A DNA stretch of 32,000 nucleotides, taken from assembly GCF_016592615.1 (NCBI RefSeq), contig NZ_AP013043.1, positions 1,140,001 through 1,172,000 of the forward strand, read 5' to 3'. The notes under the pieces are model-generated. The model was given only the letters and a program-made list of their open reading frames with translations, did no database searches and was not told where the DNA came from. Source of the DNA: Isorropodon fossajaponicum endosymbiont JTNG4. GTDB lineage: Bacteria > Pseudomonadota > Gammaproteobacteria > PS1 > Pseudothioglobaceae. A program made the position numbers and the translations under genes. Position 1 is the stretch's first letter. Each line of letters opens with the position of its first letter. This document shows positions 3,176-32,000 of this stretch, one piece after another.

Positions 3176-5341
3176 ATGAATTTATCTGAAATAACAAGCG
3201 GCCTAAACGACAAACAATGCCAATCAGTCACATTAAGTAATGAAAAAAATGCTTTAATACTAGCGGGTGCAGGCAGTGGCAAAACCAGAGTGCTCACACA
3301 TAGAATCGCTTATTTAATCACACAAAAAGATATTCGAACCGATGCTATTTTAGCGGTTACTTTTACTAATAAAGCCGCTGCTGAGATGCGTGAAAGGCTA
3401 AGTACTCTATTAAGACGCCCTATTCAAAGCATGTGAGTGGAAATATTTCATAGCTTGGCACACCGATTATTACGCACTCATTATGAAAAAGCTAAGTTGA
3501 CTTCTGGCTTTCAAATTTTAGATGCACAAGACCAGTTTCGCATTGTCAAACGTCTAATGAAAGAAAATCACATTGATGAATCTAAGTTCCCCATTAGAAA
3601 GGTTCAGTGGTTTATTAACAATCAAAAAGGCGAAGGTATTCGCCCGCAAGACATTGATCCTGGTTATAACTATTTTGTTAAAAAGTCTTGAAGTGTTTTG
3701 AACTTTATGAAGCGCACTGCCAAGCAAATGACCTAGTTGATTTTGCAGAACTACTGATACGTAGTTATGAGCTATTAAAAAATAACACAGACTTGCTTAA
3801 TCATTATCAAGCGCGCTTTGAGCATATTTTAGTGGATGAATTTCAAGATACCAATACGGTGCCAATACAAATGGATTAAATTATTGTTTAGTGGCAATAA
3901 TTAAGTATTTTGTGTGGGTGGTGATGACCAATCTATTTATGGCTGGCGCGGTGCAAAAATTGAAAATATCACCAAACTATGTACAGGTTTTACCCCTATT
4001 GAAACCATCCGCTTAGAACAAAATTATCGCTCAACTGGTAATATTCTAAACGCCTCTAACGTCTTGATTACCCATAACGCCAATCGTATGGGTAAGTCTC
4101 TTTGGACTGATGCTGGCAATGGTGAATTGATTGATGCCTATGAAGCGCGAACTGAAACAGATGAGGCAGATTATGTCATCAGTAGTATTCAAAAATTAAT
4201 CACTGATGGTGCATCACCTAGTGATTGTGCTATTTTGTATCGCTCCAATGCCCAATCTCGTAACTTTGAAGAAGCGCTCATAAAATACAACATTCCTTAT
4301 ATTATCTATGGTGGTTTTAGGTTTTTCGAGCGTGCTGAGATTAAAGATGCTTTAAGTTATTTGCGTTTGATAGAAAATTCTGCTGACAATGTTGCCTTTG
4401 AACGTGTGATTAATTTCCCAACTCGCGGTATTGGCAATGCAACGGTTGAAAAAATACGCACCTTTGCACAAGATAACCACACCAGTCTTTTTCAAGCAGC
4501 CATACAAATGTCATCCACCCTACCAACTCGCGCTGCCAATGCATTAAGTAGCTTTGTTAACCTAATTGAGCAAATGACAGACGACACAAAGAACCTAGAT
4601 TTATCTGAAGAAGTAGCCAACTTGCTTAATACATCAGAATTAATGATGCATTATTCTAATGATAAAACCGATAAGGCTGGCAGTAAAAAAGAAAATCTAG
4701 AAGAACTAATCACCGCAGCGCAACAATACAACCATGAACAAGATAGCGGGATGAACGAAGTGGTGGGGTTTATCTCTTTAGCACCACTAGATTCTAGTGG
4801 TGACACCAATGCGCCTATTAACCAAAATGTACAACTTATGACCATACACTCAGCCAAGGGGTTGGAATTTCCTTATGTATTTTTGGTTGGTATGGAAGGG
4901 GACTTATTCCCCTCTAGACAAAGCAAGGATGAGCCTCATTTAATGGGTGAAGAAAGACGATTATGCTACGTGGGCATGACTCGCGCTATGAAAAAACTAT
5001 CACTCTCTTATGCTATTAAACGCTTTTTGCACGGACAATCCTTATACGCTTATCCTTCACGTTTTTTAGACGAAATTCCAAGTAAATATTTAAATAAGAT
5101 TAAGGCTAAATTTGGTGCAACAATACAAAATTACAATGATGATAAGGCTTTTGATCAAAGTATTACACCCAAATCTGATGGCCAATTATTCATCGGCGCT
5201 TCAGTTAAACACACCAAATTTGGCGTGGGCACAGTGTTAAATTTTGAAGGGCAAGGCGATTCTACTAGGGTGCAAATAAAATTTAAACAAGTAGGCACAA
5301 AATGGCTGATTAGTTCGTATGCAAACCTAGGATTCGTTTAA
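3176..5341 (+). pseudogene. uvrD: DNA helicase II UvrD, multiply disrupted
   Basis: Four consecutive ORF pieces are collinear with E. coli UvrD ([16 protein letters not shown]..., VDEFQDTN, GDDDQSIYGWRGA, LEQNYRS, TIHSAKGLEF, YVGMTRA, C-terminal KFGxGTV...IKWL). The lesions are: TGA at 3434-3436 where UvrD has Trp (GMWVGTFH); a frameshift near 3680-3690 at an A5 run; a frameshift near 3862-3870; and an in-frame TAA at 3902-3904. Confidence 0.9.
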
Positions 5342-5916
5342 ACCTATCTTTATGACTGTTGAATATATAATACATAATAATGGCGTACTGCACCATCGTC
5401 CAGATTAAACAAAAACACTCAAACCAAACTAACAGCACTTATAGAGGCAATCAAACGCCCTAAAAGTTTTTTACACCAGTAACTTTAAAAAAAAATTAAG
5501 CGTAGATTATGGTTAATGGCTAACCCGACAAAATCCACAACACATAATTAAAGTCTTATGTGTGTGGCGTTCAACTGCTAGATTAATACCATAACTTGCA
5601 CAAAATACAATAGCTCCAATATTATCAACGACCTAATATTTCCTTTTCAAAGCACTGCTTAAAAGCGCCATCTTTAAATCCACTATAGGCGGTCTCCCAG
5701 CCAGCCATCTTACAAGGCTCCTGTCCAGCCTTTTTCCCAAGAATTAAGATAGTTAGCCCCATGGATTTGGAGCAAATTGTCGCATGCCTTTACAATTGTA
5801 TTTAGCATTTTTTCTATCACCTAAGTTAATTTTATCGGTCATTCCAAAGTAATCTAAAAAACCAGAATAATATTTAACCCTATTGTTTGCAATGCTCTAA
5901 CCTACTTGGACACATT

Positions 5917-6646
<730 letters not shown>

Positions 6647-6771
6647 AGCGTTGGTGTTGTTGTTTACTCGCTTATCTTTGACTTGATAGTAATAACTACT
6701 GCGAGGAAGTTTGAGTAATGCTCATAATTCTTTAGTATTGTATTGTTGGCAAGCCTTGTTTATCTTGATAA

Positions 6772-7123
6772 TCATATCACTTGGTGATTGTCCACAGCGA
6801 ACAAGGCTGTTGCCTTTTTTAAGATTTCATTGTCCCTTTGTGCGCGCCAAAGTTGTTTCTCAAGCAGTTGTATTGTTTGTTGTTCAGAAGTCAGCGCTTT
6901 GCCTGACTCTGGTGTTTGTCCACCAAGCTCTGCTAGGTATTGTTTTCTCCATCTGCTAACTGCTGAGGAGCAAGCTCCTGATATTATCATGATTTTTTTT
7001 ATTGGTGTAATTCTCATGCACCATGAGTTTGGCATAATCTAGTGTTCCCCCCTCAAGGGGGTATTGAACAGAATGTTCAACGGTAAAAGTCACTCGTTGT
7101 TTTCTTGATTTATATTGTGTCAT
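6772..7123 (-). pseudogene. type-A IS orfA (HTH transposase N-part), frameshifted
   Basis: Same sequence as the intact 116-aa orfA at 30015-30365, but with T8 (6993-7000, equal to A8 on the coding strand) instead of A7, which splits the reading frame. Confidence 0.8.
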
Positions 7124-7188
7124 TACTGACCTCCTTATGGTTTGTATTATAAGGCTATCTTTGTGTCCAATAAAATTAGACTATTGCA

Positions 7189-7433
7189 CCAACTCAAAAT
7201 GCCTACATTGAGAGATTTAACCGTACAGTAAGACAAGAGTGTTTAGATCTGCATTTGTTTGATTCTGTTGAGCAAGCACAAGATGCAACCACACAGTGGT
7301 TATGGGTTTATAATAACGAACGACCGCACTTTGCCCTAGGTGGCATACCACCTAGGGCAAAGGTGGCGTGATAAGATGACTGTAAACAAGTCAAGCCTCT
7401 ACTTTAGAGTTGTATGGAAAATTGGGGTATTAA
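7189..7433 (+). mobile_element. 3' fragment of IS3/IS407-like element, type B
   Basis: Encodes ...TQNAYIERFNRTVRQECLDLHLFDSVEQAQDATTQWLWVYNNERPHFALGGIPPRAKVA*, the C-terminal end of an IS3-family DDE transposase. It ends in the terminal repeat ...ctactttagagttgtatggaaaattggggtatta, which matches the other end of type B at 24416-24448. It appears identical by eye to the reverse complement of 29706-29949. Confidence 0.85.
7329..7362. repeat. perfect 15-bp palindrome with 4-nt loop inside type-B IS
   Basis: ctttgccctaggtgg-cata-ccacctagggcaaag, overlapping the codons for FALGGIPPRAK. It is repeated at about 29777-29810. Confidence 0.9.
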
Positions 7434-9091: not shown

Positions 9092-9817
9092 TTAACTACC
9101 CCATAAAAGTTGCATATTGGCTATCGCTGCGAGTGATGCGGTTTCAGTTCTTAGTACACGAGAACCTAACAATAAAGACCGATAGCCTGCTTGTATAGCT
9201 TGATTGATTTCTATTTCACTGAGTCCGCCTTCGGGACCGATTAAAATACTTGCCTTATCAACTGCTGTCAACTCTAATAGAGTTTGCTCACAACGATGAT
9301 GCAGAACAAAGCCGTTGACAATTGGTTGTTGTAGAAAATCTCTCAAATTGACAGGTGTGAGCACTTCTGGAATAACAGAACGTCCCGACTGCTCACAAGC
9401 ACCAATAACAATCTTTTACCAATGTGATTGATGCTTTGTTAGTTTGTCTAGTTTGTCGCCTTTGAATCTAACCACACAGTGCTGAGTAAAAATAGGAATG
9501 GTTCTATTAACACCCAATTCCACGGCTTTTTGTATTAAAAAATCCATCTTTTCGCCTTTGGCAATACCTTGAACCAAAGTGATGTCCAATTTAGACTCAG
9601 ACGTATTTTGAGTGCAAGTGTATACTTCAATCTCACAATATTTTTTTACTTGCACAAGTGTGGCTAAATAGTTCTTGCCATCACCATTAAATAAAGTAAT
9701 CTCTTGGCCTTGAGGAAAGCGCAATACTTTTGCTAAATGACGTGATGCATATTCATCAAGCATCAATTTCTCATTAATTTGCAAGGGGGTATTTTGGTAC
9801 AATCGTACGTGTTTCAT
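9092..9817 (-). pseudogene. rsmE: 16S rRNA m3U1498 methyltransferase RsmE with one in-frame nonsense codon
   Basis: MKHVRLYQ...FNGDG...GIAKGEKMDFLIQKAVELGV...KLDKLTKHQSHW*KIVIGACEQSGRSVIPEV...ILIGPEGGLSEIEI...LGSRVLRTETA. Both halves are in the same frame. The TAA at 9416-9418 sits where RsmE proteins have Gln in the (R)WQKI motif. Confidence 0.85.
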
Positions 9818-9883
9818 GGTATCTTTGTGCGTAATAAATAGTGAATAGAAATGTTCATACAATTAAGCCATATTTGATAAAAA

Positions 9884-12682: not shown

Positions 12683-13532
12683 CATTTGGCTTGCCCCTGC
12701 AAAAATTAACTTATTTTTGCACATTAACAACAAAAGAGAGGATGGTTATCATAATTTTCAAACCATTTTTCAGCTGCTTGACTATTGCGATGAATTAAAA
12801 TTTTCTATCACTAGTAATGGTGTTATTAAACGCATTAGTGGCAATGAAGATGTAGAGCAAAGCCAAGATTTAATCGTTAAAGCGGCCAAAGCACTTCAAC
12901 AACACACCGGCACAACGTTGGGTGTTAACCTCTCAATCGTTAAAAATATTCCAATGGGTGGTGGTTTAGGTGGTGGCTCTTCAGATGCAGCAACCACATT
13001 AGTGGCACTTAATCAACTTTGGGATACAAAATTAACCCAAGTGCAACTGATGAAATTGGGGTTAAGTTTAGGTGCAGATGTACCCGTATTTATTTTTGCT
13101 AAAAGCGCTTGGGCAGAAGGTATGGGAGAAATTCTAAGCCCTGTTAAAACACCTAATCATTATTTTTTAGTGGTCTTTATTAACCAACATATTTCAACTA
13201 AAGAAATTTTCTCTCATTATGCATTGACAATGAGCAAACCTCAAGGGAAAATAGCCAAGTTCTCTGAACTTGTAAATACTCATAATGACTGCTTACAGGC
13301 AGCCATAACGTTAGAGGCAGAAATTGGTGTTGCACTAGAACACCTTGATACTTGCGCTAATCATATTGGTCAAGCTAGAATGAGTGGCACAGGTAGCTGT
13401 GTTTTTAATGAATTCTTAACTGAGAAAGACGCTTTGGCAGCGGCTAAAAAAGTGCCAAAAAAATGGATGAGTTTTGTATCGCGTGCAATCAACACTTCTC
13501 CGATTCATAGTTGGGCTGTCGCCAAGCGGTAA
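12675..13532 (+). CDS. ispE: 4-diphosphocytidyl-2-C-methyl-D-erythritol kinase
   Basis: 285 aa with [11 protein letters not shown] and the GHMP motif [14 protein letters not shown]. The last ~21 nt of the ORF run into the tRNA-Gln gene. Confidence 0.88.
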
Positions 13533-13586
13533 GGCAACGGGTTTTGATCCCGTCATGCGCAGGTTCAAATCCTGCCAGCCCAGCCA
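13512..13586 (+). tRNA. tRNA-Gln (anticodon UUG)
   Basis: TGGGCTG acceptor pairs with CAGCCCA. The D-arm is CGCCAAGCGGTAAGGC, the anticodon stem-loop is ACGGG-TTTTGAT-CCCGT, the T-arm is GCAGGTTCAAATCCTGC, and CCA is encoded. It closely resembles E. coli tRNA-Gln. Confidence 0.9.
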
Positions 13587-13656
13587 ACTTCTTTTTATGT
13601 TTTGTCTTCTTATCAGCGTATAATATAGCTACTTTAATAGTATTGATTAATCCTCT

Positions 13657-14610
13657 ATGTCTCTTGACAAAATTAAAATCTTTAGCGGTAATGCTAATCC
13701 TGAGCTTTCTGGCGAAATCATTTCTAGTTTAAATATCGTACAAGGTAAAGCACTGGTGGGTAGATTTAGCGATGGCGAATCCCAAGTTGAAATATTAGAG
13801 AATGTACGTGGTTGTGATGTGTTTATCATTCAGCCTACTTGTGGACCTTCTCCGGCTGAAACCTTAATGGAACTTTTGGTTATCGTTGATGCACTTAAAC
13901 GCTCATCAGCTACACGAATTACTGCTGTTGTGCCTTATTTTGGCTATTCAAGACAAGATCGTAGATCACGCCTAACTCGCGTACCCATCACAGCAAAACT
14001 TGCTGCAAAAATGGTTGAATCTGCAGGTGTTGATCGAATATTAACTGTTGATTTGCACGCAGATCAGATTCAAGGCTTTTTCAATATCCCAATTGATAAT
14101 ATTTATGCCCAGCCTGTTTTAATTGAAAACATCCTATCTAAAAATTACCAAGACATCGTTGTTGTATCTCCTGATGTAGGTGGCGTAGTAAGAGCACGCG
14201 CTGCTGCAAAGCGCTTAAATGATGCAGACCTTGCCATTATTGATAAACGACGCCCAGCACCCAATATGGTCAAAATCATGAATGTTATTGGCGATGTTGA
14301 GGGTAGAACTTGCATTCTGATTGACGATATGGTTGATACCGCTGGTACACTTTGCCAAGCCGCTAGTGTTTTGAAACAACGGGGCGCTAAAAAAGTAGTG
14401 GCCTACGCCACACATGCCGTTCTTTCTGGCAATGCCATTCACAATATTGAAAACTCTGAGTTAAATGAGTTGGTAACAACCAACACCATTCCACTTAATG
14501 CCGATGCTGCCAACTGTTCTAAAATTAGGCAATTGTCCATTGCACCAACAATGGCTGAGGTTATCAAACGAATTAGCGAAGAGCAATCTATTAGTACTAT
14601 TTTTACATAA
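13657..14610 (+). CDS. prs: ribose-phosphate pyrophosphokinase
   Basis: 317 aa with [22 protein letters not shown], and the PRPP loop [11 protein letters not shown]. Confidence 0.92.
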
Positions 14611-22241: not shown

Positions 22242-22306
22242 TGCAATAGTCTAATTTTATTGGACACAAAGATAGCCTTATAATACAAACCATAAGGAGG
22301 TCAGTA

Positions 22307-22658
22307 ATGACACAATATAAATCAAGAAAACAACGAGTGACTTTTACCGTTGAACATTCTGTTCAATACCCCCTTGAGGGGGGAACACTAGATTATGCCA
22401 AACTCATGGTGCATGAGAATTACACCAATAAAAAAAATCATGATAATATCAGGAGCTTGCTCCTCAGCAGTTAGCAGATGGAGAAAACAATACCTAGCAG
22501 AGCTTGGTGGACAAACACCAGAGTCAGGCAAAGCGCTGACTTCTGAACAACAAACAATACAACTGCTTGAGAAACAACTTTGGCGCGCACAAAGGGACAA
22601 TGAAATCTTAAAAAAGGCAACAGCCTTGTTCGCTGTGGACAATCACCAAGTGATATGA
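22307..22658 (+). pseudogene. type-A IS orfA, frameshifted (A8 at 22430-22437)
   Basis: Identical to 30015-30365 except for A8 versus A7 and a G/A change, so the N-terminal 40 codons are out of frame with the HTH/leucine-zipper part. Confidence 0.75.
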
Positions 22659-22783
22659 TTATCAAGATAAACAAGGCTTGCCAACAATACAATACTAAAG
22701 AATTATGAGCATTACTCAAACTTCCTCACAGTAGTTATTACTATCAAGTCAAAGATAAGCGAGTAAACAACAACACCAACGCT

Positions 22784-23512
22784 ATGATTAAATTAATCAA
22801 ACAAACTGCTATTGAAGTTGGATACACCTATGGCAAACGCAGAATGCGAGTAGTTTTGAATAACCAAGGTTATAACATTGGTATTTACCAAACTGCAACG
22901 CTAATGAAAAAAGCCAATGTAGTTGCCATACGCCCAAGAAAGCGTCATTATTACCCTAATACTAGATTGATGTTTAAAAAGGCAAAAAACCTATTAAATC
23001 GTGTGTTTGAGCAGCAATCAATTAATACGCATTGGGTTGGTGATATTACCTATATCAAAACCTATCAAGGTGGGAGTTATTTAGCCAGTGTGTTGGATTT
23101 AGGCTCAAGACAAGTTGTTGGTTGGGCATTGTCAAAACAGCCTAATGCTCAGTTGGCAAAGGATGCGCTTAGTAATGCTGTGTCTAGACACCAGCCCAAT
23201 ACAAATAAACACATGTTTCACTCTGATCAAGGGACTCAATACTCTTCTAAAGTTTTTATTGATTATTGCAACAAGAACAACATTACTCAAAGCATGAGCA
23301 GGCGAGGTAATTGTTGGGATAATGCGGTCATGGAGCGTTTCTTTAGAAGTCTGAAGACTGAGAGATTAAATTATCAAAGTTTTGCAAATCATAGTGAAGT
23401 CGTGCAAAATGTAGAGGGTTATATCTACTTGTATAATTACAAAAGGATTCATTCAGCGATTGGGTATTTAACACCTGCTCAAAAGATGGCTGAATTGAAA
23501 AAAGCGGCTTGA
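22784..23512 (+). CDS. type-A IS orfB (DDE transposase catalytic part), ORF intact
   Basis: 242 aa with DDE-region motifs. An in-frame TGA at 22706-22708 separates it from the frameshift site, so an OrfAB fusion cannot be made as written. Confidence 0.8.
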   Translation: MIKLIKQTAIEVGYTYGKRRMRVVLNNQGYNIGIYQTATLMKKANVVAIRPRKRHYYPNTRLMFKKAKNLLNRVFEQQSINTHWVGDITYIKTYQGGSYLASVLDLGSRQVVGWALSKQPNAQLAKDALSNAVSRHQPNTNKHMFHSDQGTQYSSKVFIDYCNKNNITQSMSRRGNCWDNAVMERFFRSLKTERLNYQSFANHSEVVQNVEGYIYLYNYKRIHSAIGYLTPAQKMAELKKAA

Positions 23513-23541
23513 AATGTGTCCAAGTAGGTTAGAGCATTGCA

Positions 23542-24449
23542 CACTCACCGAAACCCTACATTTCCCTAAATCATGCCTTCATTGTGAAGATCCGCCACTG
23601 AATCAAACGTTCTAATGATTGAATAACTCGTCTTGCTGGCATGGACAAGTCCACATCAATATTCAAGCCTTCCCGATTGTAATCATCGACAACATTAAAA
23701 GTTCTAATGTGCCTGCCATCAGTGAGTGAGTCTGACATAAAATCCATTGACCAAGTTTGGTTAATAGTTGTTGGCACACTCAGTGCTTCGGGTTTATCTC
23801 TTTTGATTCTTCTTCTTGGCTTGATTCTTAGATTGAGCTCCAGTTCTTGGTAAATGCGATACACTCGTTTATGGTTAAATTTGTAGTCTTTAACATTACG
23901 TAGATATAAATAGCACAGTTTAAAACCCCAACGCTTGTGCGTTGCGGTTAAGCGCAGTAGACAATCGGCAATTAAAGCATTGTCATCACTGAGTTTTGGT
24001 TGATAATAATAAGTGCTTTTACTAATGCTACAAACTTCGTAAATAAGTTTGATACTTGTGTTCTTATTTTGTTCATTGATGTTTAAAGCCATCCTCACGC
24101 CACTGGGATGGCTTTAGAACTTTTTTGCTAAGGCATCCTTTGTAATTTGCAGTTTCAACTCACTCTCAGCATACATACGCTTGAATTGAGCATTTTCTGA
24201 TTCTAGCTCTTTTAAGCGTTTAACCATAGAGACAAAATCTGTATCACCGTATTTAGATCTCCATTTGTAAAATGTGGCTTGAGACATTGCGTATTCACGG
24301 CATAGATCAGCCACAGATATGCCTGATTGGTTTTGTTTGAGTATGTTGACTATTTATGACTCTGTATATCTTGATTTTTTCATGTGAAAACTCCTTATTT
24401 TTTATTATAGAATTTTCTACTTTAGAATGGTGGTTTTTTGGGGTATTAC
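23542..24449 (-). mobile_element. 5' part of IS3/IS407-like element, type B, truncated by type-A copy 2 and internally decayed
   Basis: The left terminal repeat (complement of ctactttagaatggtggttttttggggtatta, 24416-24448) matches the type-B right end at 7400-7433. orfA is at 24114-24383 (MKKSRYTES*IVNILKQNQSGISVADLCREYAMSQATFYKWRSKYG...) with an in-frame TAA at 24354-24356. A slippery GCA_AAA_AAG lies near the orfA stop. The orfB N-part is at 23571-24098 (SKSTYYYQP..., HKRVYRIY, WSMDFMSD, TFNVVDDYNRE) but sits in the orfA frame, which implies an extra indel. Confidence 0.85.
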
Positions 24450-24454
24450 ATTAA

Positions 24455-24909
24455 CAAATTAAAGAAGTAGTGCCACGTCATTCATTGGTGCCATTAGTAA
24501 ACAATACAGGAGTAATTGCGGGCCCTGTTGGAGAGTTGGCAAAACTTTTAGCGGTTATGGCACTACTTAGTAGACAATTGATTTCAAAGAAATTAACTTT
24601 ATTTTATGTGGTGTTATGTACTTTAGGTTTTTCGATGATTGAAAATGTTTATTTTTTTTTGAAATATAGTGAAATTTTGTTTATAAGGGCGAATCCAGCC
24701 CATATGGTATTTTCTGCAATATGGGGTAGTGCCTTAGGCGCTTGGCTGACTAAAGAAAAAAGTTTTTCGTATTTTTTATTTGCGTTGTTTCTGGGTAGGG
24801 GCTACATGCAAGTTGGAATTTATTTGCAATAAAAAATACAACGTTTCATATTTATCTGTTTATTGCAGTACCTTGGATTGGTCTTAGCTTTATTAAAAAT
24901 CAACTTTAA
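24455..24909 (+). pseudogene. PrsW-family intramembrane protease, 5'-truncated by type-B IS and frameshifted
   Basis: Motifs appear in order: GPVGELAKL (EExxK-like), LGFSMIENVYF, RANPAHMVFSAIWG, and then, after a frame change near 24800-24812, GLHASWNLFAIKN...IKNQL*. Confidence 0.6.
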
Positions 24910-25352
24910 ATTTATACATTGCTTCATTAAATTGGTGATATTTCATTTCTTCATCAGCTACAAATAAAAAACATCATATTTATTTAGTAATTGTCTCACT
25001 ATATTTTGATTAATGTTGTATTTTTCTAATTTACCCGATATTCCAACATTTTTATTTAGCTTGTTGGCAATATAGCGGGCTGATGCAAAGTGATGAGAGC
25101 CACCACTATTCATAAGAAATATCCGTTTATCCCAGCTATAAGCCTCCAAAAGAATCATGGTCATGGTGGTGAATAATTCTTATTTCATCATGTGCTAAAT
25201 TTTCATTTAGTTTTTCTGTGGTAATAGGGGCTATCATTTCTTTAGAATTTGTTTTACCATGTCATCTAAATTTATAAAATCTTCAAGTTTAGATTTAGAA
25301 GCAAAAAGACCACTAACATTTTGTATATCGCAAATATAATTTCTTTCAATCT
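24893..25352 (-). pseudogene. unknown protein remnant, at least three frame disruptions
   Basis: Pieces in three frames read collinearly: ERNYICDIQNVSGLFASKSKLEDFINLDDMVKQILKK | MIAPITTEKLNENLAHDEIRIIHHHDHDSFGGL | AYSWDKRIFLMNSGGSHHFASARYIANKLNKNVGISGKLEKYNINQNIVRQLLNKYDVF | FLFVADEEMKYHQFNEAMYKFKVDF*. No family was recognised. Confidence 0.4.
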
Positions 25353-25432
25353 TGCAACCCTAGAACCCGTGAGGAGGATTTTGAAAAAATACCTCCTTCA
25401 AACCTCCTAAATTTTTGATAAACAGAGATAAG

Positions 25433-25799
25433 TCAGCTTTGCTTTTGACTGTGAGAGTCTGTAGTTTTCTGTGATTTTTCTCTACTTGATTTCATTTCTT
25501 GTTGGCGTTTGTTTTTCACAAACTCGATCAATTCACCTTGATTAATAAGGCCTTGCTCTTTAGCTTGTTTTATTTCATCAAGACTGATTTTATCAGTTGC
25601 CATATTTAGGCTGTTTTGCATAATTTTCCGGGCTTGTTCTATCTCTTGCTTTTCACCAAGAGTATCGACCACTTTTTATCATCTGAAAATTTAACACTAG
25701 CTTCTGCATTAAAATAGTCTTTGGCAACAGATTTATAAGCAGACACACGCTCAAATAAAGAATCATCTTTAGGGGTAAAGATATGAGCGTTATTAGACA
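25433..25799 (-). pseudogene. unknown charged ~121-aa protein, one frameshift
   Basis: MSNNAHIFTPKDDSLFERVSAYKSVAKDYFNAEASVKFSDDKK joins (V)VDTLGEKQEIEQARKIMQNSLNMATDKISLDEIKQAKEQGLINQGELIEFVKNKRQQEMK... across a T5/A5 run at 25674-25678. Confidence 0.45.
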
Positions 25800-25864
25800 T
25801 GTTAAAATTATAAGCCAGTAGTTTTATTAAAAAACTAATTTTACACCATGCTAATATACTTACT

Positions 25865-26303
25865 TTGAATACTCAACAACCGCCCTATACAGAAGAATTA
25901 AAGCATATTGCAGATAGTATGGGCATCTCTCTGTATCAAAGGCTTACTATAGCAGAAGCATCGCTATTTTTACGCATATCAGTAGCAGAGCTTAGAAAAA
26001 TTTTAAAGCAGGGAAAACTTAACCATACAGAGATAACAGAAAAAAATTATGAATTTTTTGGTTATCAACTATTAGAATTTTTATTAAGTACCACTACCAA
26101 AAATAAAATTAAGCCAATTATTCCTGGAAAAACACCTGATAGAATTATATAGAGCTAAAGAAGTGCAAAATATGACAGGGCTATCAAGAACGACTTTATG
26201 GCGATTAGAGAATAAAGGTGAGTTTCCTTATCGGGTAAGCCTTGGTGGAAACAGTGTAGGTTGGAAACTTAGCGAAATAAAAGGGTGGATTGATGAAAGA
26301 TAG
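25865..26303 (+). pseudogene. tandem helix-turn-helix regulator, second module AlpA-like (prophage/integrative-element type), one frameshift
   Basis: The first module is LTIAEASLFLRISVAELRKILKQGKL. After ...PDRII a 1-nt shift near 26145-26152 leads into RAKEVQNMTGLSRTTLWRLENKGEFPYRVSLGGNSVGWKLSEIKGWIDER*, the AlpA/excisionase-type pattern. Confidence 0.6.
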
Positions 26304-26354
26304 AGAAAATTTAATGTGTATACATACTGGTATGCATTTTTAAATAAGAAAATA

Positions 26355-26390
26355 AAAAACCCTTTAGAAGTCTTTTTTTAAAGGGTTTTT
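26355..26390. terminator. bidirectional terminator between convergent genes
   Basis: aaaaacccttta-N12-taaagggttttt, placed between the AlpA-like gene (+) and the transferase gene (-). Confidence 0.65.
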
Positions 26391-26557
26391 GTGTATAAAA
26401 ACGGTGGAGATGGGGATTTTATACTCGATAACGAGAGAATCTGCAAATGAGGCTTGTTGTGTGTCCTTCTAGGACATTCTTAAGAATTTTTTGTTGGTTG
26501 TTTAGATGGTTTCTATTTTACTGGTTTGGGTTGATTTATGCAAAGGTCTCATTTAAA

Positions 26558-27331
26558 CTAATTAACGGACTTCTTAAGTATTTTTTCTAAATTTGCATAT
26601 TCAAATATATCAAGCAAAGATGTGTTTGAGCAATTATAGATTTTATTTTTTTCTAACAACATTTGGTACTGTTTAAATATTTTTCCAGTAGCTGCAAATG
26701 TATGTTGATTGTATGACTTACCTTTCATGGTTCTTGAAATTTCATTTTTTTGATGAAGCCCCTCTTTGTAAAACCTCCATTGATTTCCCTGATTGCATAC
26801 ATAATTATGATCTATTCCTAATAAGTATATCTCATCAAAGCCCATATAGATAGCACTTATTAAGGCATAAATACTGATAGTGTTTGCATTCCATATCATA
26901 TTTGTCATCTTTATATCTTTTTTATTAAAACTGTAATATTCACCTGTATTGATTCCTGTGTAATACCAATTCACTTGATGGTTGTTAAAAAGTTCGTATT
27001 TATTGAGTATATATCTTGTATTATTTTTGTAAGTGTTAAGTCCAAATAGTATTTTTGTATGTTTAGGTATATATTGTTCCATATCTTCAAACCAATCTTT
27101 CCATTCTTGCTCTGTTTGTGGTAAATGAATTGGTGCTGTCATATAATATTTTTCAACATCACCACTCATTATTTCTTGAAAGTCTGGATGAACATAAAAG
27201 TTATTTAAAGCGAAAACAATTTCATTTTTTAATACTTTTAAATTTTCTTGTTTTATGGATGGTCCACTACCCAAAAGAAAACATCTTTGTCCTTTATGTT
27301 TGTCCTCAAGTTCTATGTTTTTTGCGACCAA
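26558..27331 (-). CDS. putative nonulosonic-acid (sialyl) transferase, GT42/Cst-like
   Basis: 257 aa with an apparent TTG start. Motif-level match to Campylobacter Cst-II as I remember it: CFLLGSGPSIK vs IIAGNGPSLK; ALNNFY vs RCNQFY; ISIYALISAIYMGFDEIYLLGIDHNY vs SGVYMCAVAIALGYKEIYLSGIDFYQ; IYNCSNTSLL vs LYCLCPNSLL. It lies downstream of the CMP-sugar genes. Confidence 0.55.
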   Translation of the reverse strand: MVAKNIELEDKHKGQRCFLLGSGPSIKQENLKVLKNEIVFALNNFYVHPDFQEIMSGDVEKYYMTAPIHLPQTEQEWKDWFEDMEQYIPKHTKILFGLNTYKNNTRYILNKYELFNNHQVNWYYTGINTGEYYSFNKKDIKMTNMIWNANTISIYALISAIYMGFDEIYLLGIDHNYVCNQGNQWRFYKEGLHQKNEISRTMKGKSYNQHTFAATGKIFKQYQMLLEKNKIYNCSNTSLLDIFEYANLEKILKKSVN

Positions 27332-27420
27332 GTCCTTATATTTTTTTAAAAGAATTAGAGGTTCTTATGTTGTTTATTTTGCCTAATAAAATAGGTGGCA
27401 AGAATGATTTTATTTTATTT

Positions 27421-28584
27421 TTAGTTACCATTATTTTTCTTTAAAATAATTTCAATAAATTCTCTTACTGCGCCATAGCCACCAGTTCTTTTAAGTTGGA
27501 TAATATTTGGTATGCATTTTATTTCATCTACTGCATTTTTTGGACAGGCAGATACAGATACTTTTTCTAGCAATTCCCTATCATTAATATCATCACCAGC
27601 ATAAGCAACTTCATCGAGCGTTATATTTTCCATTTTACAAATTTCCTTAACAACTTGTAATTTCTCACCATGCTCAACATCTTGATATAAATAATCCACT
27701 TTTAACTTTCTTGCTCTGTTTTCCACTATTTTTGTCTTCTCACTAGTGATAATACCTGTCTTGATACCAACATTCTTTAATAACTCAAAACCCTTTCCAT
27801 CATGTGTATTAAATTTTTTAAATTCTTCACCATTCTCTCCATAATACATACCCGCATCAGTTAGCGTGCCATCCACATCACTTAAAAACAATTTTATTTT
27901 ATTTTTAGGCTTTTGGTAGTCAGCATATTTTTTCATTAATTGTTCCGCAATAAGCCAATCATCCGGCTCGTCCAATTCAAGCATTGTATGTTCTAGCATT
28001 TCATAAATTTCAATCTTGCCACTTAACCTATTCTTATATTTTTTTACATTGCCAACAGAGCTAATATAAATTGCGCCATTTTCTATCAAGTTGCCAGAAA
28101 AATCTTGCCTTTTAGGACGGTATTGATAGTTGTAATTTAGTGCTTTTCCGTTTTTATCCCATAAAAATCTTTTAAAAACCGCGCATGACAACAGACTATC
28201 TGCGTTAGATTTTTGCAGCTTGTCAATTGATAGGTCAATATCTTCTGCCGTTGTAAATGGAGAGGTTGCTTGAATTAATAAAAATAAATCATCATTGGAA
28301 AAATCTTTTTTATCTAAAAATTCAAGCATCACATCTTCTGTTGAGGCCGAATTAGAAGCATTTCCCTTGTCCCTGTCATAAAGACTAACTTTAGAAAAAT
28401 TAAAATGACTCACAGCTGATTTTATCTCTTTACAATCTGTAGCTACATACACTTTATCAATATGCTTAGAATTAACAACTGCAAGTAGAGCCCAATATAT
28501 TAAAGGCTTGCCATTCAATTCTTTAATATTTTTAAAGGCTACTGACTGACTACCACACCTAACTGGAATAAATGCTATATTCAT
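27421..28584 (-). CDS. neuA: bifunctional CMP-nonulosonate synthetase (NeuA-type cytidylyltransferase) / KdsC-type HAD phosphatase
   Basis: 387 aa. The N-domain has IAFIPVRCGSQSVAFKNIKELNGKPLIYWAL, LIQATSPF and RPKRQDF...ENGAIY. The C-domain has LFLSDVDGTLTD (DxDxT), HDGKGFELLKNVGIKTGIITSEKT and YAGDDINDRELL. Its ATG overlaps the upstream stop (ATGA at 28581-28584). Confidence 0.85.
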   Translation of the reverse strand: MNIAFIPVRCGSQSVAFKNIKELNGKPLIYWALLAVVNSKHIDKVYVATDCKEIKSAVSHFNFSKVSLYDRDKGNASNSASTEDVMLEFLDKKDFSNDDLFLLIQATSPFTTAEDIDLSIDKLQKSNADSLLSCAVFKRFLWDKNGKALNYNYQYRPKRQDFSGNLIENGAIYISSVGNVKKYKNRLSGKIEIYEMLEHTMLELDEPDDWLIAEQLMKKYADYQKPKNKIKLFLSDVDGTLTDAGMYYGENGEEFKKFNTHDGKGFELLKNVGIKTGIITSEKTKIVENRARKLKVDYLYQDVEHGEKLQVVKEICKMENITLDEVAYAGDDINDRELLEKVSVSACPKNAVDEIKCIPNIIQLKRTGGYGAVREFIEIILKKNNGN

Positions 28585-29462
28585 TTTCTATTTTTCAATT
28601 TATCTCGTTGGGCTTGTTCAATTAGCAGTATTTCACTATCTTTAAAATTCAGTGCTTTGTAAGTAGCATTTAAATCTCTTACTAATTTCTGAAGCCCTTG
28701 AGGTTCTAATGATGCAGCATGGTCTGTACCTTTCCATGTCCTATCTTTGGTAAAATGCCTCTCTATCCATCTTGCCCCTAAAGTATAAGCAGCAATATCC
28801 AAGGCAACCCCTAAATGATGACCAGAAAAACCTATTTGATTTACTCTGTTTCCATAATTATCATATAACCAGTTAATCTCAAGTAATGCAACATCCTCAG
28901 CAGGAACAGGATATCCAGAAGTGCAAGAATAAATTAATAATCTTGATTTTGCTTGGTTTGTTTGTTCAAAGAACTGAACAATTTCCTCAATTTCGTCTTT
29001 TGTTGTCATGCCGACCGACAACTGAACCTGCCCTGTAAAATCGTCTCTAAGCACCTTCAACATATCAAAATTATTATTGCAAGCCGAAGGAACTTTTAAA
29101 AACTCAGGTTCAAGAGTTATCATTTCTTTTGCAGAAGTAACATCCCACATTGAGGCGCTATAAATCATGCCGATATTATCACAATACTCTTTCAACTCTT
29201 TATTTTGAGCCACATTAAATTCTAAAAATTCTCTATGCTCTCCATAGGTCTCACCATACGAATTATGCGCTACAGGATGTTTTGCTTCGTATTGCTCTTT
29301 GGTTAATAATTCCTTATTATTTCGTTTTTGAAATTTAACATATTTAGCGCCAGACTCTTTTGCTAAATCAATTAATTCTTTGGCAATCTTTATGTTACCC
29401 ATATGATTACAGCCTATTTCAGCTATTACTTTGGGTTCTTGATAGTTATGGTTAAATGGCAT
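28581..29462 (-). CDS. neuB: NeuB-family nonulosonate synthase, NANS-like (9-phosphate type), lacking the SAF/AFP domain
   Basis: The start is set at the ATG 29462 (AGGAG 7 nt upstream), giving 293 aa. Motifs are IAEIGCNHMG and KFQK. AHNSYGETYGEHREFLEF resembles human NANS SKHSWGKTYGEHKRHLEF. CTSGYPVPAEDV and GFSGHHLG are present, and ERHFTKDRTWKGTDHAASLEP resembles NANS ERHITLDKTWKGSDHSASLEP. The protein ends where NANS and NeuB begin their C-terminal SAF/antifreeze-like domain. Confidence 0.8.
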   Translation of the reverse strand: MPFNHNYQEPKVIAEIGCNHMGNIKIAKELIDLAKESGAKYVKFQKRNNKELLTKEQYEAKHPVAHNSYGETYGEHREFLEFNVAQNKELKEYCDNIGMIYSASMWDVTSAKEMITLEPEFLKVPSACNNNFDMLKVLRDDFTGQVQLSVGMTTKDEIEEIVQFFEQTNQAKSRLLIYSCTSGYPVPAEDVALLEINWLYDNYGNRVNQIGFSGHHLGVALDIAAYTLGARWIERHFTKDRTWKGTDHAASLEPQGLQKLVRDLNATYKALNFKDSEILLIEQAQRDKLKNRK

Positions 29463-29487
29463 ATTTACTCCTATTTTAAGTTTAAAT

Positions 29488-29515
29488 AGAGATTGTCTAA
29501 AACTTTCCAATCTCT
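29488..29515. promoter_or_regulatory. 8-bp inverted repeat in the neuB 5' leader
   Basis: agagattg-N12-caatctct lies 26-53 nt upstream of the neuB ATG. It could be an operator or an mRNA hairpin; its function is unknown. Confidence 0.3.
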
Positions 29516-29606
29516 TTTGTACGTGAATAGTTATCTCCAATATGAATAATAATATCATAAAAATAATTATTCACTTTATTACAATACTTATCCCTATATT
29601 TTTTTT

Positions 29607-29705
29607 TCATAATCCTTCATTCCGTTTCTTTTCTATTATCTCTATTTCGTCATCTGTAAAATTATGCTCTTTAAACCAATCAATGCCATAAGGAGTGTCA
29701 TATTG
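29607..29705 (-). pseudogene. 3' remnant (33 codons) of a gene cut off by the type-B IS
   Basis: ...QYDTPYGIDWFKEHNFTDDEIEIIEKKRNEGL*. The rest of ORF-track call 29607-29798 is IS-end sequence. Confidence 0.45.
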
Positions 29706-29949
29706 TAATACCCCAATTTTCCATACAACTCTAAAGTAGAGGCTTGACTTGTTTACAGTCATCTTATCACGCCACCTTTGCCCTAGGTGGTATGCCACCT
29801 AGGGCAAAGTGCGGTCGTTCGTTATTATAAACCCATAACCACTGTGTGGTTGCATCTTGTGCTTGCTCAACAGAATCAAACAAATGCAGATCTAAACACT
29901 CTTGTCTTACTGTACGGTTAAATCTCTCAATGTAGGCATTTTGAGTTGG
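29706..29949 (-). mobile_element. 3' fragment of type-B IS (second copy of 7189-7433)
   Basis: It appears by eye to be the exact reverse complement of 7189-7433, including the 15-bp palindrome, and has the same junction with the type-A left end. Confidence 0.85.
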
Positions 29950-30014
29950 TGCAATAGTCTAATTTTATTGGACACAAAGATAGCCTTATAATACAAACCA
30001 TAAGGAGGTCAGTA

Positions 30015-30365
30015 ATGACACAATATAAATCAAGAAAACAACGAGTGACTTTTACCGTTGAACATTCTGTTCAATACCCCCTTGAGGGGGAAACACTAGA
30101 TTATGCCAAACTCATGGTGCATGAGAATTACACCAATAAAAAAATCATGATAATATCAGGAGCTTGCTCCTCAGCAGTTAGCAGATGGAGAAAACAATAC
30201 CTAGCAGAGCTTGGTGGACAAACACCAGAGTCAGGCAAAGCGCTGACTTCTGAACAACAAACAATACAACTGCTTGAGAAACAACTTTGGCGCGCACAAA
30301 GGGACAATGAAATCTTAAAAAAGGCAACAGCCTTGTTCGCTGTGGACAATCACCAAGTGATATGA
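30015..30365 (+). CDS. type-A IS orfA, the only intact copy (116 aa, A7 at 30138-30144)
   Basis: MTQYKSRKQRVTFTVEHSVQYPLEGETLDYAKLMVHENYTNKKIMIISGACSSAVSRWRKQYLAELGG...LEKQLWRAQRDNEILKKATALFAVDNHQVI. This shows the typical IS3 OrfA HTH, a leucine-zipper-like segment, and a slippery site near the end. Confidence 0.8.
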   Translation: MTQYKSRKQRVTFTVEHSVQYPLEGETLDYAKLMVHENYTNKKIMIISGACSSAVSRWRKQYLAELGGQTPESGKALTSEQQTIQLLEKQLWRAQRDNEILKKATALFAVDNHQVI

Positions 30366-30490
30366 TTATCAAGATAAACAAGGCTTGCCAACAATACAAT
30401 ACTAAAGAATTATGAGCATTACTCAAACTTCCTCGCAGTAGTTATTACTATCAAGTCAAAGATAAGCGAGTAAACAACAACACCAACGCT

Positions 30491-31176
30491 ATGATTAAAT
30501 TAATCAAACAAACTGCTATTGAAGTTGGATACACCTATGGCAAACGCAGAATGCGGGTAGTTTTGAATAACCAAGGTTATAACATTGGTATTTACCAAAC
30601 TGCAACGCTAATGAAAAAAGCCAATGTAGTTGCCATACGCCCAAGAAAGCGTCATTATTACCCTAATACTAGATTGATGTTTAAAAAGGCAAAAAACCTA
30701 TTAAATCGTGTGTTTGAGCAGCAATCAATTAATACGCATTGGGTTGGTGATATTACCTATATCAAAACCTATCAAGGTGGGAGTTATTTAGCCAGTGTGT
30801 TGGATTTAGGCTCAAGACAAGTTGTTGGTTGGGCATTGTCAAAACAGCCTAATGCTCAGTTGGCAAAGGATGCGCTTAGTAATGCTGTGTCTAGACACCA
30901 GCCCAATACAAATAAACACATGTTTCACTCTGATCAAGGGACTCAATACTCTTCTAAAGTTTTTATTGATTATTGCAACAAGAACAACATTACTCAAAGC
31001 ATGAGCAGGCGAGGTAATTGTTGGGATAATGCGGTCATGGAGCGTTTCTTTAGAAGTCTGAAGACTGAGAGATTAAATTATCAAAGTTTTGCAAATCATA
31101 GTGAAGTCGTGCAAAATGTAGAGGGTTATATCTACTTGTATAATTACAAAAGGATTCATTCAGCGATTGGGTATTT
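30491..31176 (+). pseudogene. type-A IS orfB, 3'-truncated
   Basis: Identical to copy 2 orfB up to ...[10 protein letters not shown]. The ORF then runs into unrelated flanking DNA. Confidence 0.8.

Positions 31177-31356: not shown

Positions 31357-32000
<644 letters not shown>

Follow-up and report, generated by a model that had tools for sequence, protein, structure and literature searches.

A candidate cassette for CMP-Kdn synthesis and Kdn transfer, with a frameshifted transferase gene, in the clam symbiont JTNG4

Organization of the module

The window analyzed here is a stretch of 32,000 nt from the genome of Isorropodon fossajaponicum endosymbiont JTNG4 (contig NZ_AP013043.1, positions 1,140,001 to 1,172,000), a vertically transmitted chemosynthetic symbiont living in the gill of a vesicomyid clam. 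The proteins encoded by the three genes treated below are 100% identical to NCBI entries of this genome. Our subject is a three-gene module within it, which public annotation describes as enzymes of N-acetylneuraminic acid (Neu5Ac) metabolism ('N-acetylneuraminate synthase' and 'N-acylneuraminate cytidylyltransferase') plus a hypothetical protein. The evidence points instead to 3-deoxy-D-glycero-D-galacto-non-2-ulosonic acid (Kdn) made from mannose-6-phosphate (Man-6-P), and we consider it likely that the locus is a horizontally acquired cassette that makes cytidine monophosphate (CMP)-Kdn and transfers Kdn.

As an original prediction from the sequence alone had proposed, the module consists of three co-oriented minus-strand open reading frames (ORFs). 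The synthase gene (28581..29462) encodes a NeuB-family aldolase of the Kdn-9-phosphate (Kdn-9-P) synthase type, 293 amino acids (aa) long, with a TIM-barrel NeuB domain and without a SAF domain. Its start at 29462 is correct, given that hundreds of homologs are also 293 aa long and that an AGGAG lies 6 nt 5' of the ATG; a longer ORF extending to 29558 is not the synthase gene. The next gene encodes a 387-aa fusion protein and overlaps the synthase gene in a real ATGA stop/start (28581-28584). Residues 1 to ~225 form a cytidylyltransferase (CMP-nonulosonate synthetase) domain (27910..28584), and residues 226-387 a KdsC-family HAD domain (27424..27909) that is a predicted Kdn-9-P phosphatase. 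The third gene (26558..27431), for a putative CMP-nonulosonate (Kdn) transferase of ~290 aa, is frameshifted as sequenced.

The synthase

The synthase matches the Pfam NeuB family at 224 bits and has no SAF match in Pfam. It is 63.9% identical over 285 aa to the Kdn-9-P synthetase of the haptophyte alga P. parvum, and 38%, 31% and 30% identical to human NANS, B. thetaiotaomicron BT1714 and N. meningitidis NeuB (NmNeuB), respectively. BT1714 and BT1715 are labels that we take to denote the B. thetaiotaomicron synthase and cytidylyltransferase genes adjoining the phosphatase gene BT1713. The synthase does not reach the NeuB_NnaB equivalog TIGR03569, scoring about half of the cut-off (199.7 bits vs 399.65), nor the PseI equivalog TIGR03586, where it scores less than half (130.9 vs 340.25). 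For these comparisons the human NANS sequence was verified and that of BT1714 was taken from the B. thetaiotaomicron locus (L035); the P. parvum sequence was translated from the gene that Wagstaff et al. 2018 (PMC6200933) give in their supplement, and its identity as a P. parvum protein was confirmed. The algal enzyme converted 100% of Man-6-P, and 0% conversion was reported with N-acetylmannosamine 6-phosphate (ManNAc-6-P), mannose, N-acetylmannosamine (ManNAc), mannosamine, arabinose 5-phosphate (Ara-5-P) and arabinose (PMC6200933).

In an alignment of five sequences (the synthase, the P. parvum enzyme, NANS, BT1714 and NmNeuB), the metal- and phosphoenolpyruvate (PEP)-binding residues of NmNeuB are all conserved in the synthase (E25, K53, K129, S132, S154, Y186, S213, H215, E234, H236 and D247). 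Two motifs, S-x-G-x-TYG-x-H...LE and D-x-x-(W/M)KG-x-D...SL-x-P, together with a Ser at the position of NmNeuB N184, are common to NANS, BT1714 and the P. parvum enzyme and absent from NmNeuB. The synthase carries these phosphosugar-user motifs, as SYGETYGEHREFLEF and KDRTWKGTDHAASLEP, plus the Ser at position 184, and the three signature motifs quoted in the original prediction do occur in it.

A neighbor-joining tree, for which a single classical NeuB was the only outgroup, unites the synthase, 14 bacterial relatives and the P. parvum enzyme in a clade with bootstrap support of 1.0 (200 replicates), with NANS, BT1714 and NmNeuB outside; the synthase does not nest with the classical NeuB in this tree. 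The proposal that the locus follows a 6-phosphosugar/9-phosphate route is supported by this grouping with a Man-6-P-specific enzyme at 100% bootstrap and by the shared phosphosugar-user motifs.

The family is very abundant in marine metagenomes, the homolog search having returned at least 8000 scored candidates, the best 120 of which are at least 80% identical. SAF-less synthases with 75-85% identity were found across Campylobacterota, Gammaproteobacteria and a Bacteroidota TARA scaffold (L001, L003-L027, L029). The haptophyte enzyme nests within the bacterial clade of the tree. This nesting and the identity between phyla suggest that there may have been recent inter-phylum transfer as well as transfer from a bacterium to an alga, or the reverse. 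SAF-less NeuB homologs have been noted earlier as an 'environmental' cluster without a functional assignment (PMC8208679).

The cytidylyltransferase-phosphatase fusion protein

The N-terminal half of the fusion protein matches Pfam CTP_transf_3 (PF02348) at 70.2 bits, against a threshold of 22.6. Its best solved relative is PpNeuA (9t4z, E 9e-38), whose aligned stretch matches the published P. parvum CMP-Kdn synthetase, and the domain is 39% identical to that enzyme. Other solved relatives are mouse CMAS (E 1e-24) and N. meningitidis NeuA (E 1e-8). The P. parvum CMP-Kdn synthetase did not accept Neu5Ac (PMC6200933).

For the HAD half, the best solved relative is BT1713, the Bacteroides Kdn-9-P phosphatase (3e81, E 4.5e-40, 48% identity; a second structure is 4hgo), and KdsC enzymes are worse matches by 12-16 orders of magnitude. 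The HAD catalytic motifs are all present, namely SDVDGT (the DVDGT motif), GIITSE (T/S), the Lys and GDDIND, so that a check for their loss came out negative. E56 and K67, the two positions mutated in deposited BT1713 variants, are kept as in BT1713; R and A/S take their place in the KdsC structures 3n07 and 3mn1. The top NCBIfam family of the domain is the Kdn-9-P phosphatase family NF058599. The KdsC equivalog NF007019 is not reached (123 bits vs a cut-off of 208), and the broader YrbI/KdsC subfamily TIGR01670 is (136.7 bits vs 106.95). The fused KdsC-type phosphatase of the original prediction can thus be specified further, its closest relative being a Kdn-9-P phosphatase.

The third gene

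The only Pfam family in question for the third protein is PF01973 (MptE-like/Maf_flag10/DUF115), which matches through the C-terminal third of the model only. The family of the third gene straddles the PF01973 cut-off of 34.6 bits: the third protein scores 30.3, its orthologue in Candidatus Ruthia sp. Asou_11_S2 (L033) 30.5, a relative in L001 33.7 and the full-length homolog P0122 35.1. No match to PF06002, the Pfam family of GT42, was obtained for the third protein or for three full-length relatives at E values up to 0.1. The label 'GT42-like', under which the gene had been proposed, would apply to the predicted fold described below and not to Pfam membership, where a borderline PF01973 match takes its place.

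An AlphaFold2 model of P0122 (71% identical), built from a 75-sequence alignment, has a predicted local distance difference test score (pLDDT) of 91.3. Searched with Foldseek against the PDB, its top nine matches are C. jejuni Cst-II, Cst-I and a P. multocida sialyltransferase, with probability 1.0 and E down to 8e-6, and the eukaryotic GT29 sialyltransferases rank next. A profile of the family run against PDB sequences also places Cst-II first (E 0.008), with a nearly end-to-end alignment in which the GxGPS, NxFY and GxxEIYLxGxD motifs match. The PF01973 domains of Maf proteins have been described as GT42-like and as transferring nonulosonic acids (bioRxiv 10.1101/2020.06.03.131540).

The gene is also linked to CMP-sugar production. 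A metagenome scan with the family alignment returned 73 loci, and the fusion gene is present in 40 of the 55 with at least 500 bp of upstream sequence. Where at least 2.1 kb of upstream sequence was available, a Kdn-type synthase was found in 21 of 33 loci, and the exact synthase-fusion-transferase adjacency in 12. In a second architecture, a methyltransferase and a Wzx flippase gene are inserted, and distant family members (38% identity) adjoin other NeuB-type synthases. Our best reading is that the third gene would encode a CMP-Kdn-dependent transferase acting on a surface polysaccharide. In the literature library that we searched, no paper described a bacterial CMP-Kdn transferase.

In some loci with third-gene homologs (L028 4266-6578, L058, L078), there is also either a fusion of HMGL-like and CTP_transf_3 parts, 770 aa long, or a NeuB of a distinct type (24-26% identity), which hints at other ulosonic-acid pathways with related transferases.

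A frameshift in the transferase gene

The island had been described as an intact set of three genes, which applies to two of them as sequenced. The ORF at 26558-27331 (257 aa, TTG start) covers only the 3' portion of a gene for ~290 aa. Homologs of the third gene are 285-295 aa long and have a conserved N-terminal segment of ~33 residues, which in JTNG4 lies in another frame; the true ATG is at 27431, overlapping the end of the fusion gene by 11 nt. On the minus strand at 27341..27347, one surplus A (A7 for A6) causes the first 31 codons to run into a TAA (27336-27431). Removal of one A restores a 290-aa frame that is ~97% identical to the Ruthia protein. In a three-way DNA alignment, both Candidatus Ruthia sp. 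Asou_11_S2 (L033) and a Logan assembly contig (L034), which are 97.7-98.1% identical to positions 26409-29601 of the window, carry A6, and in both the gene is intact (292 aa) and overlaps its neighbor in the same way.

The segment removed by the frameshift is a conserved helix predicted with high confidence, in which K6, P10, P11 and F26 are nearly invariant. Upstream of the putative TTG restart, just 1 nt separates the AAGGA from the start codon, which is poor Shine-Dalgarno spacing. Judging from the sequences compared, the frameshift could be very recent, a homopolymer sequencing error, or tolerated via slippage. A7 is reportedly short for efficient transcriptional slippage (Tamas et al. 2008). 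Two Tyr replacements in the N-terminal fragment, Tyr-to-Asn and Tyr-to-Ser, were considered as signs of decay after the frameshift and rejected, since both residues also occur in the intact Ruthia orthologue. In comparison with the Ruthia sequences, a 6-nt AAAAAT unit is lost inside the transferase gene (window 26646-26652) and A3 replaces A4 upstream of the synthase (~29507). Small indels of this kind in A-rich repeats would fit slippage as the predominant mode of mutation, or else homopolymer errors in sequencing.

Gene neighborhoods of related loci

We compared 25 genome loci from Campylobacterota, Gammaproteobacteria, Bacteroidota and one 'Eubacterium' metagenome-assembled genome (MAG). 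All of them but the short contig L014 have the fusion gene adjoining the synthase gene, although what comes after the synthase in L007 is the HAD part alone. In L004 (7238-7999), L026 (7249-7998), L028 (1-504), L029 (3869-4612) and L030, the synthase is immediately preceded by a gene of ~250 aa that combines CBS, MannoseP_isomer and cupin domains, and a homolog was located by tblastn ~0.75-0.8 kb upstream of the synthase start in L043, L044 and L096. In L084, such a homolog precedes a more divergent synthase (57% identity). Neither the window nor the Ruthia relative has this gene or a detectable remnant of it. Upstream of the module, the Ruthia relative has ManC/phosphomannose isomerase (PMI; 5 kb upstream), GDP-mannose dehydratase (GMD), epimerase and Wzx flippase genes.

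In the related loci inspected, there was no credible call of a UDP-N-acetylglucosamine 2-epimerase (NeuC/GNE-type), a ManNAc kinase or NanE; L004 gave a weak sub-threshold Epimerase_2 match that is probably a GT-B-fold protein. Given the mannose-6-P-isomerase-like neighbors and the lack of a credible epimerase or kinase, Man-6-P as substrate and Kdn as product are favored. The original prediction had held Kdn to be at least as plausible as Neu5Ac, and the case has since been strengthened, with Kdn the better-supported product. Kdn/Neu-type sugars are frequent in environmental prokaryotes (PMC8157484).

In the Thiohalomonadaceae MAG (L026), an ORF with BNR repeats (sialidase-like) is located at 12899-14005, ~3 kb downstream of the Kdn module; its product may be either a hydrolase acting on Kdn or a BNR protein without any such role.

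Proposed pathway and alternatives

In the proposed pathway, the SAF-less NeuB-family aldolase would condense Man-6-P with PEP to Kdn-9-P, from which the C-terminal KdsC-type HAD domain of the fusion protein would strip the 9-phosphate. The N-terminal cytidylyltransferase domain would then use CTP to convert Kdn to CMP-Kdn. In intact cassettes, the ~290-aa single-domain enzyme, predicted to have a Cst-II-like (modified GT-A) fold, would move Kdn from CMP-Kdn onto a surface glycan of the O-antigen, capsule or lipooligosaccharide (LOS) type. On this reading, the three genes were translationally coupled through the 4-nt overlap of the first two and the 11-nt overlap of the last two, and IS3-family insertion sequence (IS) elements have cut the cassette off from neighboring glycan genes. 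Provided that the genes are expressed, the JTNG4 cell is probably still able to make CMP-Kdn. Attachment of Kdn by this enzyme is probably lost, barring a sequencing error at the frameshift or some bypass of it.

Several points weigh against this pathway. No gene supplying Man-6-P was found in the window. The specificity of the synthase would follow from an enzyme that is eukaryotic and 64% identical, the algal one being the sole assayed member of the SAF-less clade. To our knowledge, BT1714 is the only characterized bacterial Kdn-9-P synthase; it has a SAF domain and is only 31% identical, and the two bacterial Kdn systems are therefore not orthologous. The counterpart of NmNeuB E134, in the motif KVPSACNNN, is a Cys in the synthase, a Ser in the P. 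parvum enzyme and an Asp in NANS and BT1714. E134 is one of the three proposed catalytic glutamates of NeuB; since the active P. parvum enzyme has Ser, this clade does not need an acidic residue there. The HAD domain is 8 bits short of the NF058599 cut-off (172.1 vs 180). BT1713 is reported, in the work of Dunaway-Mariano and Allen, to hydrolyze Neu5Ac-9-phosphate (Neu5Ac-9-P) too, in which case the phosphatase does not tell Kdn from Neu5Ac. Nor need the fused HAD domain be active, given that the C-terminal KdsC-like domain of vertebrate CMAS is reportedly catalytically silent (Oschlies et al. 2009). Finally, the fold match of the P0122 model is moderate (TM 0.43-0.50, root-mean-square deviation ~7.5 Å), and no catalytic residue could be mapped.

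The public annotation names would be right if the locus made CMP-Neu5Ac by the animal-type route, from ManNAc-6-P through Neu5Ac-9-P and Neu5Ac. The 38% identity to human NANS, with its signature motifs, would fit such a route, as would a phosphatase that accepts Neu5Ac-9-P as BT1713 is said to do. We regard it as unlikely, however, as the closest characterized synthase (64%) shows 0% conversion of ManNAc-6-P and the closest characterized cytidylyltransferase rejects Neu5Ac. Apart from the weak Epimerase_2 match in L004, the inspected loci lack a call for an epimerase of the NeuC/GNE type, ManNAc kinase or NanE, and several of them have mannose-6-P isomerase-like genes directly adjacent to the synthase. 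The synthase also lacks the SAF domain, which in NmNeuB reportedly supplies Arg314, contacting the N-acetyl group (Gunawan et al. 2005). The classical bacterial route, from unphosphorylated ManNAc or mannose and PEP, with the HAD domain structural or otherwise employed, is very improbable. Membership of the synthase in the NeuB Pfam family, NmNeuB as its best solved structure by sequence and the reported silence of the HAD-like domain in vertebrate CMAS speak for it. Against these stand 30% identity to NmNeuB versus 64% to a strict Man-6-P user with 0% conversion of free mannose or ManNAc, a score at half of the NeuB_NnaB cut-off (199.7 vs 399.65), and the conservation of all HAD catalytic motifs and BT1713-type substrate-contact residues. 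Synthase and phosphatase domain moreover co-occur in every locus with enough sequence, including L007, which has no cytidylyltransferase part.

The last step has its own competitor, in that the third gene could encode another MptE-like nucleotide-binding enzyme, e.g. one of the pyrophosphokinase type that modifies the sugar or the acceptor. PF01973, the sole Pfam match of the third protein, takes its name from an archaeal 6-hydroxymethylpterin diphosphokinase, and the family profile has a weak local match to the 6-hydroxymethylpterin pyrophosphokinase 8sd5 (E 0.068). That match is confined to ~29 residues of a nucleotide-binding loop, whereas the alignment to Cst-II is full-length; no pyrophosphokinase is among the top 50 structural matches, the best nine of which are all bacterial sialyltransferases followed by eukaryotic GT29 enzymes. 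With the tight linkage to a gene producing a CMP-sugar, this makes a pyrophosphokinase-type enzyme quite unlikely, and transfer of Kdn from CMP-Kdn the preferred function. A pathway to 3-deoxy-D-manno-octulosonate (Kdo; KdsA/KdsC/KdsB) was also considered and rejected: the aldolase is of the NeuB and not the KdsA family, the closest characterized enzyme rejects Ara-5-P, and the HAD residues are those of the Kdn-9-P phosphatase and not of KdsC.

State of the island

The GC content of the three genes is 0.28-0.345, compared to 0.381 +/- 0.013 for 11 core genes, and GC at third codon positions (GC3) is 0.24-0.26 vs 0.306. The comparison of the island with core genes, which had been suggested as a check, thus came out lower for the island. 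The segment bracketed by IS copies (23542-29705) has a GC content of 0.322.

Three IS3-family copies are present in the window. Copy 3 (29706..31176, plus strand), with rve, HTH_21 and HTH_Tnp_1 domains, abuts the upstream end of the module. By self-BLAST it is 99.7% identical to 5960-7432 and 22242-23469, which lie in copy 1 (5888-7432, minus strand), the longest, and copy 2 (22242..23541, plus strand). Copies 2 and 3 form direct repeats (D1/D2) around 23542-29705. A composite transposon was nevertheless rejected, as the outer IS ends are truncated: relative to the copy at 5888-7432, the left one is without 244 bp and the right one without ~72 bp. Apart from the module, everything between these two copies is fragmentary, in line with the broken surroundings described in the original prediction. 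The fragments comprise a second, different IS3-family element (23571-24314, minus strand), part of a PrsW protease (24470-24832, plus strand; profile positions 48-161 of 196) and part of a DUF6685 protein (24958-25164, minus strand; profile positions 69-128 of 207).

The region upstream of the operon (29463..29705, minus strand, 243 bp) contains the AGGAG ribosome-binding site and a promoter-like site and is cut off by the IS end. The promoter-like TTTAGA-17-TAAAAT (29501-29473) is no better than chance, with 22 sites found vs 18.3 expected, and the promoter/terminator scan gave nothing above chance. Homology to Ruthia ends at the IS end (~29708), which lies 244 bp from the synthase on its upstream side, and compared with the Ruthia relative this upstream region has lost ~324 bp. 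The locus also lacks the ManC, GMD and Wzx genes found ahead of the module in that relative, and blastx and tblastn searches of the island flanks found no remnants of PMI-cupin, methyltransferase, Wzx or ManC genes.

Compared with its Ruthia orthologue, the synthase has a dN/dS of 0.20; the fusion has 0.22, and the transferase, once its frameshift is corrected, 0.28. The deficit of nonsynonymous changes is significant in each case (p 0.011, 0.0006 and 0.026, respectively). These ratios and deficits indicate that all three genes were under purifying selection until recently. It had been argued that retention of the module suggests selection, which its present state does not support: the last step is broken, an IS has come within 244 bp of the synthase on the upstream side, and the glycan genes that the relative has upstream are missing from this locus. 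The suggested host mimicry is likewise not supported: free-living marine bacteria carry the same cassette within ordinary clusters of the O-antigen/capsule type, so that there is no tie to mimicry of the clam, and active maintenance for host mimicry is not shown by the data.

It is quite possible, although we lean somewhat against it, that the island is a decaying remnant in which the transferase is a true pseudogene, no glycan is decorated and the two biosynthetic genes are open only because the lesion is recent. The +1 frameshift takes out the conserved N-terminal helix, the TTG restart is poorly placed, and further JTNG4-specific lesions are the 6-nt deletion in the transferase, the ~324-bp upstream deletion and the IS near the synthase. 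The absence of the ManC, GMD and Wzx genes of the Ruthia relative, the fragments elsewhere between the IS copies and the truncated genes elsewhere in the genome fit the same picture. However, none of the three genes has a second inactivating lesion, the dN/dS values with their significant deficits speak for function until recently, and sequencing errors most commonly take just this form, a difference of one base in a homopolymer. The 1.45-Mb genome may also encode another transferase at a different locus. In our view, JTNG4 is a vertically transmitted chemosynthetic symbiont in which part of the surface-glycan repertoire was horizontally acquired and is at present being taken apart through IS activity and, if the frameshift is real, homopolymer slippage. 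Our literature search on JTNG4, and on Ruthia or Vesicomyosocius in connection with sialic acid, found nothing relevant.

Comparison with known systems

The pathway proposed here is of a known kind, the Kdn route of B. thetaiotaomicron and P. parvum, and what is offered is a re-annotation and not a new system. The closest likeness is to P. parvum (PMC6200933), which has a SAF-less synthase of similar length that is 64% identical and shares the clade and signature motifs, a cytidylyltransferase 39% identical to the domain here, and the same predicted chemistry from Man-6-P through Kdn-9-P and Kdn to CMP-Kdn. The alga, however, has no recognizable Kdn-9-P phosphatase, and its cytidylyltransferase is free-standing with a C-terminal membrane anchor, whereas here the phosphatase is fused to the cytidylyltransferase in an operon with the transferase. 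NmNeuB position 134 is Ser in the alga and Cys here.

B. thetaiotaomicron also has a dedicated KdsC-type Kdn-9-P phosphatase, with which the HAD domain shares 48% identity as well as E56 and K67, and its Kdn locus is likewise in a surface-polysaccharide cluster. It differs in that its synthase has 346 aa with a SAF domain (31% identity), its three enzymes are separate proteins, and its 249-aa cytidylyltransferase has no BLAST match to the fusion protein. The neighboring candidate transferase is of the PF07388 polysialyltransferase type and not PF01973-like.

The vertebrate NANS/NANP/CMAS pathway shares the 9-phosphate route and, in NANS, the motifs SxGxTYGxHxxxLE and DxxWKGxDHxxSLEP, and both domains of mouse CMAS match the fusion protein (1qwj, E 1e-24; 3ewi, E 2e-16). 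NANS, however, has a SAF/AFP-like domain, prefers ManNAc-6-P and is 38% identical. Vertebrate CMAS is itself said to be a cytidylyltransferase fused to a C-terminal KdsC-like domain, the latter reportedly inactive (Oschlies et al. 2009); the phosphatase step falls to NANP, an unrelated HAD enzyme, whereas the fused HAD domain here keeps its catalytic motifs. With classical NeuB/NeuA systems (N. meningitidis SiaC, 1xuu), the synthase has in common the TIM-barrel fold family and the metal- and PEP-binding residues. It departs from them in having no SAF domain, in E134 to Cys and N184 to Ser, in other loop motifs and in overall identity (30%); no phosphatase is needed in the classical route. By sequence, then, the synthase and cytidylyltransferase appear to be orthologous to the algal type and not the Bacteroides type, the phosphatase to be of the Bacteroides type, and the fusion to mirror vertebrate CMAS.

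For the third-gene family, Cst-II and Cst-I (GT42) are the best predicted-fold matches and share the GxGPS, NxFY and GxxEIYLxGxD motifs. Differences are the lack of a PF06002 match, ~20% identity, a TM of 0.43-0.50 and an extra conserved N-terminal helix. Maf proteins (PF01973) are similar in the borderline PF01973 match and in a gene beside that for a CMP-nonulosonate synthetase, and differ in being multidomain, where the third-gene product is a single domain of ~290 aa. The donor would presumably be CMP-Kdn, and not the CMP-Neu5Ac, CMP-pseudaminic acid (CMP-Pse) or CMP-legionaminic acid (CMP-Leg) of the Cst and Maf enzymes.

The re-annotation corrects the names in JTNG4 and in a very large set of marine metagenomic homologs, and singles out the third-gene family as a candidate Kdn-transferase. 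A broader scenario is conceivable but tentative. The ~290-aa family might be a dedicated bacterial Kdn-transferase that, with the SAF-less synthase and the fusion protein, forms a compact and mobile unit, a 'Kdn cassette', that has spread among Campylobacterota, Gammaproteobacteria (SUP05/Ruthia-type symbionts of clams included) and Bacteroidota. Such a cassette could be a plausible source of the haptophyte Kdn enzymes, and the A-run could act as a slippage on/off switch in the clam symbiont.

Additional observations in the window

A stretch of ~148 bp just downstream of the transferase gene (26409-26556) recurs, inverted, at the other end of the Ruthia contig with 89% identity (L033 84-240, 11555-11702); it may be a small repeat element that broke the Ruthia assembly. 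Truncated core genes are also found in the window. These are a uvrD-like ORF (3914-5341, plus strand) with the C-terminal helicase domain only, an rsmE-type methyltransferase fragment (9416-9862, minus strand) and a helicase C-terminal fragment (31597-31977, minus strand) ~0.4 kb past the third IS copy. They fit the reductive genome evolution and loss of nucleotide excision repair (NER) described for vesicomyid symbionts (PMC5310779).

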